Below are positions 4,940 through 33,708 of a stretch of DNA of 64,000 nucleotides, piece after piece. Below the pieces are notes generated by a model that ran no database searches, had not been told where the DNA came from, and saw nothing but the letters and a program-made list of their open reading frames with translations. Source of the stretch: a virus; IMG/VR virus record IMGVR_UViG_3300033485_000002, positions 64,001 to 128,000 of that record. The stretch is one strand, 5' to 3'. Every line of letters starts with the position of its first letter. Position 1 is the stretch's first letter. The position numbers and the translations under genes were made by a program.

Positions 4940-6193
4940 ATGGCTAATCTTACTCCCATCTACGATCACAATTGCACGCTCTGCCCCTTACATAAAGTGC
5001 CGGGGGTTACTTGTTTGTCCGGGATCGGCAACCTGGACGACCCGAGCATCCTTATAGTGGGGGATGGGCCGTCGAAGCAGGAGGTGCTGCTTGGTCGGGC
5101 GTTCGGCGATGAGCGGGGTAGGCTGCTCGCTCAGTCGCTCGATGAGATCGGTTTCCCCATCGGGCCTAAAGGCGATGTGTTTGCTACCTACGCCGTTAAG
5201 TGCTTCCCGTCTGGTAAGGTAAAGGTTAAGGATGCCAAGATTTGCGCGGCGAAGTATCTCAACCAGGAGATCGACCTTTTCCGCCCGAAGTTGGTTATAG
5301 CGCTGGGTAAAACCGCCCAATATGCCGTCTTGGGTAGTACTGCACCTATCTCTAAAACTAGGGGCAAGCTGTTCCCCTTAGTTCGTACCGACGCAGCAGG
5401 AAATGAGTGGACAACCCAGGTCATGCCGGTGGATCATCCATTCTCTATCCTCACCACACCGGCCAAGCTGGACCCGTGGCTCGCTGATCTGCGGCGGGCT
5501 AAGGCGGTGTTTTATGGCGACGGAAATCCTTACTGGTCGCCGGAGAAGCTGGAGCGGTTTGACTTTAAAGTGATTGATTCTATCGCGCAGTTCAAAGCAG
5601 TTGCACGGGAGCTTATTGCCAAGCACAGGGGCGAGTACCTAGCTATCGACATTGAAGCTAGTGGTGTTGATGAGGCTATGAACGATGATGACTTTCGGGT
5701 TTTCAGCTTGCAGTTCGGGCTTATAGATTTGGAGGGGCGCGAGGAACATCCGGTCTACTTCCTACCCATCCAGTCGGCGGGGTTCCCGTGGACATCTGAG
5801 GCTAAGTGGCTGGATAATACCGCCCGCCTGCTGAATCGGTTTCTGAGCACGGACTACTTCAAGCTGGTGGGGCATAACCTAAAGTACGATTTGAAAGCGC
5901 TTAGACGGATTGGTGTAACTGAAGCATATGCCGTCTATGACACGCTGATGGCATGGTCAATTGCACATGGTGAAGCACCGTTGTCTCTGAAAACAATTGC
6001 TTACGAGGTTAGTGATTTAGGTGGGTACGAAGTCCTTATGGATCAGTACTTTAAGGAGCACGGTACTTATGACGCCCCCCCCGAAATTCTAATCTCGTAC
6101 AGTTGCCTTGATGTTGTGCTTGTGCGCTACCTTTTTAGTGAGCTGTACAAAACGATCCTTCAAGAGAAAAAGCGTGTTAACATTGGAGTATGA
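4940..6193 (+). CDS. Uracil-DNA glycosylase family 4-like domain fused to DnaQ-like 3'-5' exonuclease (N-terminal half of split DNA polymerase A)
   Basis: CTLCPLH, IVGDGP, AVKCFP...C, LVIALG and HP motifs (UDG-4); ExoI DIEASG, ExoII GHNLKYD, ExoIII YSCLD. Confidence 0.85.
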   Translation: MANLTPIYDHNCTLCPLHKVPGVTCLSGIGNLDDPSILIVGDGPSKQEVLLGRAFGDERGRLLAQSLDEIGFPIGPKGDVFATYAVKCFPSGKVKVKDAKICAAKYLNQEIDLFRPKLVIALGKTAQYAVLGSTAPISKTRGKLFPLVRTDAAGNEWTTQVMPVDHPFSILTTPAKLDPWLADLRRAKAVFYGDGNPYWSPEKLERFDFKVIDSIAQFKAVARELIAKHRGEYLAIDIEASGVDEAMNDDDFRVFSLQFGLIDLEGREEHPVYFLPIQSAGFPWTSEAKWLDNTARLLNRFLSTDYFKLVGHNLKYDLKALRRIGVTEAYAVYDTLMAWSIAHGEAPLSLKTIAYEVSDLGGYEVLMDQYFKEHGTYDAPPEILISYSCLDVVLVRYLFSELYKTILQEKKRVNIGV

Positions 6194-6293: not shown

Positions 6294-7778
6294 ATGATTC
6301 GGTTCCATTCGGATGCCGAAGGCGGTAGTCCTCGGTGGCTGTGTGATTATCAGTCTCTATTGGTCAATGCTTTTGTCGATATTGAGAGCTGCGGTTTTCC
6401 TTTCGATCCTATTCAACATGCACAGTTTATCGAGAATGCCGAACGTACTTATGCCGAGTACGAACGGCGATTGATGACCAGCCCCCAACTGCAAGCCTAC
6501 ATCCAGCAGAAGGGGCTGCCCGCTACGGGTAAACGGGCGTTTAACCTGTCCTCGGCCACCCAACTCCAGGAGTTCCTCTTCAGCCCGCGTAGTTCAGGGG
6601 GCCTGGAGCTTGTACCCGTAAAGCGCTCTAAGCTGACGGATAAGGCTAGTTCCGACCGAGAGTCCTTGCAGCATTTCGCTCAGGCAGGCAACGCTTTCTG
6701 CTCGGATCTATTGGTGTTACGGAATTTCGGTAAGCTATTGTCGTCGTTTGGTGAGCCGCTCTTAAAGTTCTACTGTCCTCGCACCGGAGCAGTTCACCCG
6801 ACCTACTTCCTGGCCAAGGTGACAGATAGTGCTGGGGTTGCAGGCGGTACTGCGACCGGACGGCTGTCGTGCAAGCACCCCAACATGCAGCAGCTACCGA
6901 AGCGGGATAAAGATGACAAGGGAATTGGGCTGGCGGGGATCGACGTGCGGAAGTCCTTCGTGCCGTTTCCGGGCCACATCCTTATAGAGTGCGACCAGAG
7001 CCAGATCGAGGTGCGGGTCGCCGGGATGTACGCTAAGGATACGACGATGGGTAAGTTCTTCGATGAGGGGGGAGACTTCCACATCCGGGTGGCCTCTCAG
7101 GTGTTCCAACAGGATTTCGATCATATGGTCGAGGTGTTGGCGAATGAGCACCATCCCGAGTACAAGAAGTTCAAGCAATTCCGTACTGCCGCTAAAACCT
7201 TTACCTTTGGTCTGATGTTCGGTATGGGGTTGAATAAGCTGACCAGACAATCCGGGTTGACTGAGGCTGAAGGTAAAGCTTTTATCGATGAGTACTTTGC
7301 TACTTTCCCTCAGTTCGCTTCGTGGCGTGAGGAGATGATTGATTGGGCTACCGAGCACGGATGGGTCCAAACCTTATTCGGGCGTAAAAGAACCATAAAG
7401 ATTAGCGGCTATGAAACGGAGGATGGTCGGGAGGAACGCATTGGCATCAACACTCCGATTCAGAGTGCGGCGGCAGATATTACTCTGTTTGCGCTCAGCC
7501 GGTTGTGGGAGTTCTTGAAGGCCAACGGTTACGGGGCAAAGATTCTTGGCACGGTCCATGACTCTATTATCTTCTCGGTGCCCTACGAGGAGTTCGAGGA
7601 GCTATTACCGGAGATAGCCCGGAGGATGATCCGTCCACCTGGGCTGGAGTGGCTTTTGGATGACGTGCCGATTCCCCTGTCGATTGGCATTGAGGCGGGG
7701 CCTAACCTCAAGGATATGCACAAGTTAGACCTCGATGACGTGCTGACCTGCTCCCTCGACGTAAAGGATTATCTATGA
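6294..7778 (+). CDS. polA: DNA polymerase family A, polymerase domain
   Basis: TATGRLSCKHPNMQQLP, motif A DQSQIEVR, motif B RTAAKTFTFGLMFG, NTPIQSAAAD, motif C TVHDS. Confidence 0.95.
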   Translation: MIRFHSDAEGGSPRWLCDYQSLLVNAFVDIESCGFPFDPIQHAQFIENAERTYAEYERRLMTSPQLQAYIQQKGLPATGKRAFNLSSATQLQEFLFSPRSSGGLELVPVKRSKLTDKASSDRESLQHFAQAGNAFCSDLLVLRNFGKLLSSFGEPLLKFYCPRTGAVHPTYFLAKVTDSAGVAGGTATGRLSCKHPNMQQLPKRDKDDKGIGLAGIDVRKSFVPFPGHILIECDQSQIEVRVAGMYAKDTTMGKFFDEGGDFHIRVASQVFQQDFDHMVEVLANEHHPEYKKFKQFRTAAKTFTFGLMFGMGLNKLTRQSGLTEAEGKAFIDEYFATFPQFASWREEMIDWATEHGWVQTLFGRKRTIKISGYETEDGREERIGINTPIQSAAADITLFALSRLWEFLKANGYGAKILGTVHDSIIFSVPYEEFEELLPEIARRMIRPPGLEWLLDDVPIPLSIGIEAGPNLKDMHKLDLDDVLTCSLDVKDYL

Positions 7779-31330: not shown

Positions 31331-31406
31331 GGGCCGTTAGCTCAGTTGGTAGAGCATTTGTCTTACACGCAAGTGGTCGCTGGTTCAAGTCCAGCACGGC
31401 CCACCA
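31331..31406 (+). tRNA. tRNA-Val(TAC)
   Basis: GGGCCGT/ACGGCCC acceptor stem, CT-TAC-AC loop, GTTCAAGTC T-arm, encoded CCA. Confidence 0.95.
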
Positions 31407-31427: not shown

Positions 31428-31456
31428 TTGACAACATCGACCACTTCACCTATCTT
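31428..31456 (+). promoter_or_regulatory. Sigma70-like promoter of the Cas7-like/array operon
   Basis: TTGACA-17 nt-TATCTT, then AGGAGG RBS. Confidence 0.75.
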
Positions 31457-31476: not shown

Positions 31477-32259
31477 ATGGTACGTAAGAAGAAAGAAGCG
31501 GTCGCCGAAAACGAAGAGATCCAGGTGTTTAAGGTCGAAAGGGGGGAAGTGTCGTACTGTGTTTTGGGTCTTACTCCACTGATCACGGAAGCGATGAGCG
31601 AGAAGGTGAAGCGGGAGCTGTTGCTGCCCAAGGGCCGTAAGACCGCTGCCGACAAGGCGGGCACGGCCAAGCACGATGTGCTGGAGGAGTACCGCAACAG
31701 CACCTATCAGGCGAAGGACGATACGTCTCCGACTCGGATCGTGATTCCGTCTACTGCCTTCAAGGGTGCGCTCAGGGACGTGGCGACCGATATCCCCGGT
31801 GCCGCAAAGGCGCAGATCGGTCGGTTGGCGTTTGTTAAGGGCTACCATATCCCCGTGTTCGGGGTGCCGCAGCTCATCATGTCGGTGGTTCGTAACTCGG
31901 ACCAGAACCATACTCCTGACATTAGGACTCGGGCGATCCTGCCTCGGTGGGCCTGCTATCTCACGATCGAGTACACGATCCCGCTGTTGAATGATGTTGT
32001 CGTGACCAACCTGCTGGCCGCTGCTGGCCTGATGCGGGGTATTGGTGGTTGGCGTCCGCAGAAGGGGGCTGGTGACTTCGGGCAGTTCACGCTCGTTGAC
32101 CAGGACAACCCCGAGTTCTTGGACATCGTTGCCACTGGTGGGCGTGAGCCGCAGGATCTGGCGCTGGCCGATCCTGAGTGTTTCGATAGCGAGACGGTGA
32201 ACATGCTGTCGTGGTTCATGGCGGAAACCAAGCGGCGTGGTCTCAAGGTTGTGAGCTAG
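31477..32259 (+). CDS. Cas7/RAMP-like (Vipr-like) RNA-guided effector protein
   Basis: RAMP hallmarks: G.TPL in the first strand, IPSTAFKGALRD, C-terminal G-rich loop AG..RGIGGWRPQKG.G.FGQF; directly upstream of the pentamer array. Confidence 0.8.
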   Translation: MVRKKKEAVAENEEIQVFKVERGEVSYCVLGLTPLITEAMSEKVKRELLLPKGRKTAADKAGTAKHDVLEEYRNSTYQAKDDTSPTRIVIPSTAFKGALRDVATDIPGAAKAQIGRLAFVKGYHIPVFGVPQLIMSVVRNSDQNHTPDIRTRAILPRWACYLTIEYTIPLLNDVVVTNLLAAAGLMRGIGGWRPQKGAGDFGQFTLVDQDNPEFLDIVATGGREPQDLALADPECFDSETVNMLSWFMAETKRRGLKVVS

Positions 32260-32747: not shown

Positions 32748-32752
32748 CCGAC

Positions 32753-33404
32753 ATTGTCACGGTTTAGCTGTCAAGGTACGATCGGGATTGTTCGGGTTTG
32801 TCAAGGAAAGTCAAGATCTGGCGCGGTCGGGTGAGGCTGTCGTGGTTCGGTCAGATCCGTTCAGGGATGTTAGGGAAAGATATGGTGTGTTCTGGTGGGG
32901 GAAGATTCGGATGGGCAAGGTGAGGCTGTCCAGGTAAGGTTCGGTGGGATGGGGCGTGTTACGGCGACTTAGGGTTAGTCATGGGCAGGTTCGGCTGTCA
33001 CGGTATGGCACGTTAGTTTCGGGTTAGTCAAGGACGGGAACGGTGCGATCAGGTCTGATCCGGTCTGACTGTCACGGTACGTGTCGTAGGGTAGGAAAAG
33101 GCAAGGCTCAGCATGTTAGGGTTCGGTGAGGCTAGGCTGTCACGGTGTCGTGAGGATGGGACCGGCAGGGCCGGGTTCGTTGCTGGCGTGGCATATTTTG
33201 GCGGGGCTTGGCTGTCATGGTGATTTTTGCGTTCAGGCGTGATTGGGCCTGACAGGATTCGATTAGGCAGGGCCGGGTAAGGTTTGGCTGTCACGGTGGG
33301 ATATGGACGGATCCGGAAGGGAGAGATGCGTTCTGGCGGGGTCTGGTGGGGCTGGGTGAGACCGGGTGGGACGAGATTTGGTAAGATCCGGTCAGGTCTG
33401 ACTG
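32753..33404 (+). ncRNA. Gapped-guide (VIPR-like) array: 8 units of (G/A)(G/A)CTGTC-NN handle plus G-led pentamers
   Basis: Handles at 32766, 32835, 32924, 32993, 33067, 33135, 33210 and 33286 (spacings 69, 89, 69, 74, 68, 75, 76, i.e. 9+5n with small indels); 5-nt periodic G between handles. Confidence 0.85.
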
Positions 33405-33411
33405 GTATGTT

Positions 33412-33487
33412 GGGGGAGTAGCCCAACGGTAGAGGCGGAGGACTTAAAATCCTTTCAGTGTGGGTTCGAATCCCACCTTCCCCACCA
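33412..33487 (+). tRNA. tRNA-Leu(TAA), short variable arm
   Basis: GGGGGAG/CTTCCCC acceptor stem, GAGGA-CT-TAA-AA-TCCTT, GTTCGAATC, CCA. Confidence 0.9.
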
Positions 33488-33497
33488 ATGTGCTAAG

Positions 33498-33568
33498 GGG
33501 GGTATCACTCAGTGGCCGAGTAGCGGGCTTTTAACCCGCCTACCAGGGTTCGATTCCCTGTGCCCCCA
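33498..33568 (+). tRNA. tRNA-Lys(TTT)
   Basis: GGGGGTA/TGCCCCC acceptor stem, GCGGG-CT-TTT-AA-CCCGC, GTTCGATTC; no encoded CCA. Confidence 0.85.
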
Positions 33569-33708
33569 CTTTTGGAGCTAATATGGACGAGCTTAATCAA
33601 AATGTTGAACGGTTGCTGTGGATCTGGAGTCTGCTCTGCCTCAGCGTAACTGTAGTGGGTTTGTTTATTTGGTGGATAGGGAGATATCGTGATAAGTAGG
33701 AGATAGGA

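Follow-up and report, generated by a model that had tools for sequence, protein, structure and literature searches.

VIPR systems are encoded by phages and rely on a RAMP protein, Vipr, which polymerises on guide RNAs (vrRNAs) composed of GGY/NN pentamers (10.64898/2026.04.26.720920, 10.64898/2026.04.26.720927, 10.64898/2026.10.15.759431). In the system of Escherichia phage SUSP1, Vipr protomers grip each G-led triplet and display 13 variable dinucleotides (NN) (same preprints). The SUSP1 complex binds double-stranded DNA through the NN only, in the pattern NN-x-NN-x..., every third base of the target being skipped and flipped out. The skipped bases sit on codon wobble positions, either strand can be targeted, and the outcome is transcriptional silencing (VIPR preprints). 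Biochemical proof of this 1-nt skip rule comes from type II SUSP1-like systems only. One of the SUSP1 guides, vrRNA4, silences the serine recombinase of a satellite at its active-site codons, in codon phase, and blocks excision (October 2026, 10.64898/2026.10.15.759431); escape of the recombinase from the guide would need a non-synonymous change (10.64898/2026.10.15.759431). The published footprint of vrRNA4 covers only six units. VIPR systems, the skip rule, staggered arrays and a guide directed at a recombinase active site are thus already in print.

The phage that carries the locus described here is uncultivated and has a genome of at least 168 kb. The window (the whole stretch of 64,000 nt analysed, to which all positions refer unless another locus is named) is part of a contig of 168,260 bp, whose completeness is rated at about 77%. 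The vipr gene encodes a 260-aa protein for which an AlphaFold model built from an alignment reached a pLDDT of 94.8; a fold from the single sequence (pLDDT 39.7) was too poor for use and was discarded. The top fold matches of the model are all members of the Cas7 family, namely Csm3, Cmr4 and type VII Cas7 (Foldseek E ~3e-6, probability 1.00), with Z up to 9.7 against Cas7-family proteins in VIA. At the sequence level, the protein belongs to a Vipr family of 1560 clusters and matches phrog_4652; Pfam returned no match for either the vipr or the vap product, and a sequence search of the PDB returned nothing. The SUSP1 Vipr gene was located at NC_028808.2 28474-29061, on the minus strand, by means of the flanking YNNGG tracts and of the published residue numbers (H17, K33, R138, D177, W178, R179). 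In hhalign, the profile of the Vipr family aligned with SUSP1 Vipr over 53 columns (96.9% probability, E 2e-10), and the alignment spans the thumb Arg and the G-loop, with equivalents of R138, W178 and R179. The G-loop of the window's protein (residues 188-197, GIGGWRPQKG, window 32037-32066) carries a Gly at the position of SUSP1 D177, a residue essential for silencing (SUSP1 VIPR preprints); at least 90% of 65 Vipr family members have an Asp there. This Gly goes alongside a relaxed second base of the scaffold triplets in the array.

The 159-aa product of the gene that follows vipr shows a weak similarity to SUSP1 vap1 (BLASTP E 6e-4, 23% identity over 88 aa) and matches phrog_15946. The vipr-vap order is common to SUSP1 and to the closest homologue loci (L357-L359). 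The closest metagenomic homologue of Vipr, 56% identical, adjoins a pentamer array (L357), and so do more distant ones from two isolated actinophages, Mycobacterium phage Mattes and Gordonia phage Pipp. These related arrays have 7-nt breaks, one base short (GGCAGAC or GGCAGTC in L357, GGCAGGC in Mattes). In Pipp (L205:3181-3361) and Mattes (L206:2137-2359), arrays of GGC/NN pentamers lie beside a Vipr homologue annotated as 'hypothetical protein'; the Pipp array falls within CDS 43/44 of the annotation, two probably spurious genes. When the guides of the window were compared with the 168-kb genome of the phage itself, no self-target with at least 80% of NN matched was found, the best self matches (58-69%) being the same as those of shuffled guides. 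The locus is a VIPR system, because a Vipr of RAMP fold with a profile match to SUSP1 Vipr, a vap-like gene, pentamer arrays beside the homologues and the lack of a self-target all come together; expression and processing of its vrRNAs and their binding by Vipr are predicted.

The array lies in a non-coding region (32750-33411) rich in G and T and strongly periodic. Autocorrelation of G within the array is 0.32 at lag 5, 0.37 at lag 10 and 0.17 at lag 35, with peaks at all multiples of 5 nt that stay above zero up to the longest lags computed, and the array is the top period-5 signal of the entire 168,260-bp contig. A protein-coding reading of the region was ruled out by this period of 5 instead of 3, and a CRISPR reading because there is no repeat-spacer structure. 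About 130 pentamers are spread over eight units (at least four tandem units of a G-led triplet plus variable NN define such an array). Their composition was determined on the five units free of indels, since indels are present in units 5-7. In these, the first triplet position is G in 73 of 75 cases, the second is G in 46, A in 16 and T in 13 (61%, 21% and 17%) and never C, and the third is a pyrimidine in 63 of 75, while all 16 dinucleotides are represented at the NN positions. At each unit boundary the pentamer register moves by one base (9+5n spacing).

Table 1. Features of the VIPR locus, in window coordinates.
Feature	Position	Strand	Remarks
Promoter-like site TTGACA-17-TATCTT	31428..31456	+	Putative; upstream of vipr; consensus scan only, 10/12 matches
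vipr, 260-aa RAMP (Cas7-like) protein	31477..32259	+	Predicted fold; profile match to SUSP1 Vipr
vap-like accessory gene, 159 aa	32268..32747	+	8 nt downstream of vipr
Promoter-like site TTGTCA-17-TACGAT	32754..32782	+	Putative; array head; consensus scan, 9/12 matches
vrRNA array, 8 units	32766..33411	+	7-nt break opens each unit, followed by NN+G(G/A/T)Y pentamers
vrRNA unit starts	32766, 32835, 32924, 32993, 33067, 33135, 33210, 33286	+	Break core (A/G)(A/G)CTGTC, 8 copies
Unit 3	32924..32992	+	Break GGCTGTC 32924-32930; 13 NN + 12 triplets 32931-32992; Tyr-box reading, sense
Unit 6	33135..33209	+	Antisense reading ...A[DE]RLG[HQ]STV; LGH box 'qelLGHssi'; 13.4 bits, p 6.5e-4
Unit 7	33210..33285	+	Antisense reading (33229-33270) LY[DE]L[RS][HQ]T[CW]A; HxxR box, columns 168-176 'pHtlRHtfA'; 15.4 bits
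Unit 8	33286..33411	+	Sense reading TG[IM]RP[RS][DE]ALGLGW...; box I with catalytic Arg; 23-24 NN; ends at tRNA-Leu 5' end
tRNA-Leu(UAA) + tRNA-Lys(UUU)	33412..33569	+	Directly 3' of array; ARAGORN, Rfam

The VIPR locus is flanked by tRNA genes on both sides (31331-31406 and 33412-33569), and unit 8 abuts the first base of the tRNA-Leu, so that the 3' end of the last guide could be set by the 5' processing of this tRNA. The putative promoter at the head of the array shares bases with a partial break motif. A terminator-like hairpin occurs within the array, at the boundary of units 6 and 7 (33199-33228), and the T-run that follows it, TTTTT, also upsets the pentamer register of unit 7; the number of terminator-like sites found by the scan does not exceed the chance expectation. 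An identical Vipr protein is encoded on 18 contigs of this phage, drawn from several JGI, ENA and Logan assemblies. In the four further loci with readable DNA (L366, L367, L368 and L369), which come from other samples, the array sequence is 100% identical; this identity shows that we are dealing with one strain and says nothing on selection. DNA similarity to isolated phages is confined to the tRNAs, which are also the only Rfam matches in the region. Elsewhere in the window, two neighbouring ORFs (4940-6193 and 6294-7778) match successive parts (476-828 and 842-1240) of phrog_17, a DNA-polymerase family, which points to a polymerase gene that is split or has another element between its parts.

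Unit 3 is parsed as ca-GGT aa-GGT tc-GGT gg-GAT gg-GGC gt-GTT ac-GGC ga-CTT ag-GGT ta-GTC at-GGG ca-GGT tc, in agreement, letter for letter, with the NN list of the first-pass annotation. Its 5-nt register is unbroken across the 13 repeats and 11 of the 12 triplets are G-led; the two off-consensus triplets are CTT, which lacks the leading G, and GGG, which lacks the pyrimidine. The decoding rule adopted in that annotation, with NN as codon positions 1 and 2 and the wobble base skipped, is the one established experimentally for VIPR. Under this rule (table 11), unit 3 reads [HQ][KN]SGGVT[DE][RS][Y/stop][IM][HQ]S. It fits the regular expression given in the first-pass annotation for the catalytic-Tyr box of integrases, which a random 13-NN guide of the array's composition would match, in either orientation, with a probability of 4e-6. 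The status of the first NN (ca) as a guide position is less certain than that of the others, because it directly follows the conserved break GGCTGTC and four of the eight units share 'ac' at this place.

We turned to a profile to avoid judging the guide by a post hoc motif. From 150 PF00589 loci in 25 unrelated genomes, picked blind to the motif, an HMM was built with 145 domains; its emissions were converted into codon-prefix log-odds and every guide was slid over the 250 columns in both orientations. The best register of unit 3 is the catalytic-Tyr box itself (columns 195-207, 'HssistTqiYthv'), in sense orientation, with 14.9 bits, a score attained by 4 of 20,000 random guides over the ~480 registers of both orientations (p ~2e-4). 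When the break-adjacent first NN is left out, the best position is still the Tyr box (columns 196-207), with 11.2 bits and p 0.007. For comparison, the 231 in-register 13-NN windows of four other VIPR arrays (L357, Mattes, Pipp and SUSP1) reach at most 10.6 bits, and none of their in-register 9-NN windows reaches 12 bits. The window's own array was scanned blind in each of the five registers; at least 12 bits are reached by 14 of 117 in-register windows, as against 0 of 315 out-of-register windows, and the hits come in the order unit 8 (box I), unit 7 (HxxR), unit 6 (LGH) and unit 3 (Tyr). Since the four other arrays and the out-of-register windows score low, the integrase signal belongs specifically to this array and its NN positions. 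Raw best-match counts against 56 integrases were insensitive, real guides giving the same values as shuffled ones, and were given up in favour of the profile test. A simple PWM dominated by Xer-type integrases gives unit 3 a fixed-register score of only +2 bits.

The three other guides with integrase likeness read different parts of the catalytic domain. Unit 8 gives the strongest signal: its box I reading is TGMRPSEALGLGW..., and its best position, 'tGlRvsEllaLrv', scores 21-22.5 bits, a value reached by none of 20,000 random guides. A 10-NN seed of this unit was found in four IMG/VR contigs, each time in phase at the TGMRPSEALGL of a tyrosine integrase, and its first 11 NN match unrelated viral integrases perfectly; the seed NN9-18 had no viral hit. 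The first 9 NN of unit 6 also match an unrelated viral integrase perfectly: this 9-NN seed has one viral hit, in phase, at the AERLGHSTV of a tyrosine integrase. The unit carries a 1-nt insertion after its ninth NN. In unit 7, the antisense reading includes LYDLRHT and the pentamer register is broken by a TTTTT run. To judge from these readings, units 6, 7 and 8 would be directed at the three remaining catalytic boxes, probably those of several integrases and not of a single one. Unit 4 (32993-33066) reads T[IM]T[RS]RY[KN]RTA[HQ]LPL and has its best position in the Tyr box too (columns 199-212, 8.4 bits, p 0.075). Its footprint would start where the antisense footprint of unit 6 ends (column 198), and together the two units may cover one integrase, each on a different strand. 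At columns 196-198, where the footprints of units 3 and 6 coincide, five of six bases differ (TC AC GT versus AA TC GG); because of these differences, and assuming near-perfect pairing, we infer that they would address different integrases, as the first-pass annotation had proposed. Units 1 and 2 (32766-32923) have a perfect pentamer register and no integrase likeness (p 0.84 and 0.50).

We then looked for the gene that unit 3 would target. Its eight conserved dinucleotides (H K S ... T E R Y. H) do occur in phase in real integrases that have the expected upstream context, HxxRH followed by LGH, as seen in 12 of 20 viral hits and in at least 20 of 80 metagenome hits; the check proposed in the first-pass annotation was for an upstream LLG/LGH. 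The exact string NN2-13 (12 NN) is absent from IMG/VR, from 185,579 species genomes and from the JGI metagenomes, and the seed NN4-12 has no viral hit. The seed NN5-12 gave 6 viral and 54 genome hits, none of them in an integrase in either reading frame, so that the contiguous 8-NN core occurs in no integrase among these 60 hits; their extensions match at chance level, with 21-22 of 26 matches found at the chance rate. Neither of the two viral hits of seed NN2-9 is an integrase. These searches of the collections used exact seeds and could miss targets with scattered mismatches. The phage record itself contains no tyrosine integrase above threshold. The best integrase match to unit 3 has 21 of 26 bases (L086), with 5 of the 10 free bases matched (p ~0.08 per hit, for dozens of hits). 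At the five non-conserved codons (G G V, I/M and S) no sampled integrase does better than chance. For a typical integrase the match to unit 3 amounts to 17-21 of 26 bases, mostly under the published 80%, and among 51 integrases none is matched well by several guides at once. The target gene of unit 3 is unsampled or absent from the data searched. The Tyr-box reading put forward by the first-pass annotation thus stands at the motif level only, in sense orientation and in phase; a gene that matches the whole guide beyond chance was not obtained.

We consider it likely that unit 3 is the gene of a VIPR guide that spells the Tyr box of a tyrosine integrase and is directed against such a gene in a rival element. 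Unit 3 could also be a genuine guide whose likeness to an integrase is coincidental, its true target being another unsampled gene or site. No integrase fits the full guide, the p value of 0.007 obtained without the first NN becomes ~0.05 once corrected for eight guides, and the Xer-dominated PWM gives little signal, all of which speak for a coincidence. We nevertheless think a coincidence unlikely: the best of ~480 registers falls exactly on the Tyr box, the four other arrays hold no window near the score of unit 3, and three neighbouring guides match the remaining three integrase boxes, which raises the prior for the fourth. This coverage of all four hallmark boxes might instead point to units 3, 6, 7 and 8 silencing many tyrosine integrases through partial pairing, not one gene. 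The perfect matches of the first NN of units 8 and 6 to unrelated viral integrases and the six-unit footprint of SUSP1 vrRNA4 would agree with this; but the 8-NN core of unit 3 is missing from all integrases among the 60 hits, its non-conserved codons resemble those of one particular gene, and the match of most integrases stays below the 80% used in print. We therefore find this explanation quite improbable, and a family-wide action is not supported by the data because the usual match between an integrase and unit 3 is only 17-21 of 26 bases. The same low credence applies to its stronger form, a deliberate four-box set (Arg box I, HxxR, LGH and Tyr) that would tolerate mismatches at non-conserved codons and be family-wide and escape-proof. 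If true, such a set would enable a single large lytic phage to shut down simultaneously the integrases of many satellites and prophages that are unrelated to each other.

Two further explanations bear on the state and nature of the array. Unit 3 might be decayed or inactive, either a relic that selection has ceased to maintain or a guide that does not undergo processing, in line with its two off-consensus triplets out of 12, the indels in the nearby units 5-7 and the failure to find its target. Its perfect register over 13 repeats, with 11 of 12 triplets G-led, makes decay very improbable; the identity of the array in four further contigs also speaks against it, with the reservation that these represent one strain and not selection. 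That the region should be a DNA-level array for protein binding, such as iterons, a packaging site or phased bending sites, instead of a source of RNA guides, has a negligible probability in our view, despite the 12-nt core repeated eight times and the 10-nt periodicity. The array adjoins the gene of a RAMP protein, Vipr, whose homologues adjoin the same kind of array, it shows the scaffold/NN alternation and strand asymmetry of the published vrRNAs, and its in-register dinucleotides hold protein-motif information.

In the preferred reading, that of an integrase-directed guide, unit 3 spells codon positions 1 and 2 of H-K-S-G-G-V-T-E/D-R/S-Y-I/M-H-S, from the His of the LGH box via the catalytic Tyr to the next His. 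The target of the guide would be an integrase gene carried by a rival, whether a temperate phage, a satellite or some other integrative element. By analogy with SUSP1 and the recombinase of its satellite, silencing of the integrase would immobilise the rival, and a guide placed on the amino-acid-determining bases of a catalytic motif would make mutational escape costly. What the locus adds to the published record is modest: the Vipr of this environmental phage belongs to a distant clade, and four guides of its array lie over the four catalytic boxes of tyrosine recombinases. At least four of the eight guides in the array read integrase catalytic boxes, which would extend the active-site logic of VIPR from the serine recombinase of one E. 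coli satellite to the tyrosine-recombinase family. Should the targets come to light, the locus would reveal which mobile elements compete with this phage, and would test the tolerance of VIPR to mismatches at non-conserved codons.

The closest described system is the type II VIPR of Escherichia phage SUSP1 (Vipr AVU07_agp039, vap1 agp038, four vrRNAs). Both loci are encoded by phages of lytic type and combine a RAMP gene, a small accessory gene and guides of G-led pentamers with NN; the G-loop motif G-x-G-x-W-R-P and the thumb Arg of the two Vipr proteins align, and in both a guide reads a recombinase catalytic motif in codon phase. However, the Vipr proteins share only ~25% identity over 55 residues and differ in length (260 aa here, 195 aa in SUSP1), and the equivalent of D177 is a Gly in the window's protein. 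SUSP1 guides carry a pseudoknot tail of ~40 nt, whereas here a 7-nt break, GGCTGTC, separates the units, and the scaffold is GGY in SUSP1 and G-(G/A/T)-Y here. The target in SUSP1 is the serine recombinase of a known satellite, while the motifs read here are those of tyrosine recombinases, matched at the motif level. Abutting guides without long tails also characterise the 'staggered' vrRNA arrays mentioned in the legend of fig. S18 of 10.64898/2026.04.26.720920; the '1 nt overlapping positions' of that legend fit the one-base register shift of our array, and, as far as the wording of the legend goes, the two arrangements would be equivalent. At a greater distance, the backbone proteins of class 1 CRISPR systems (Cas7, Csm3 and Cmr4) have the fold in common with Vipr (Z 8-9.7), as well as polymerisation along a guide RNA and a thumb that interrupts the duplex. 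In contrast to the Cas7-type period of 6 nt with five pairing bases, Vipr has a period of 5 nt with two pairing bases and a 3-base period on the target, and the VIPR locus has no CRISPR repeat-spacer array.
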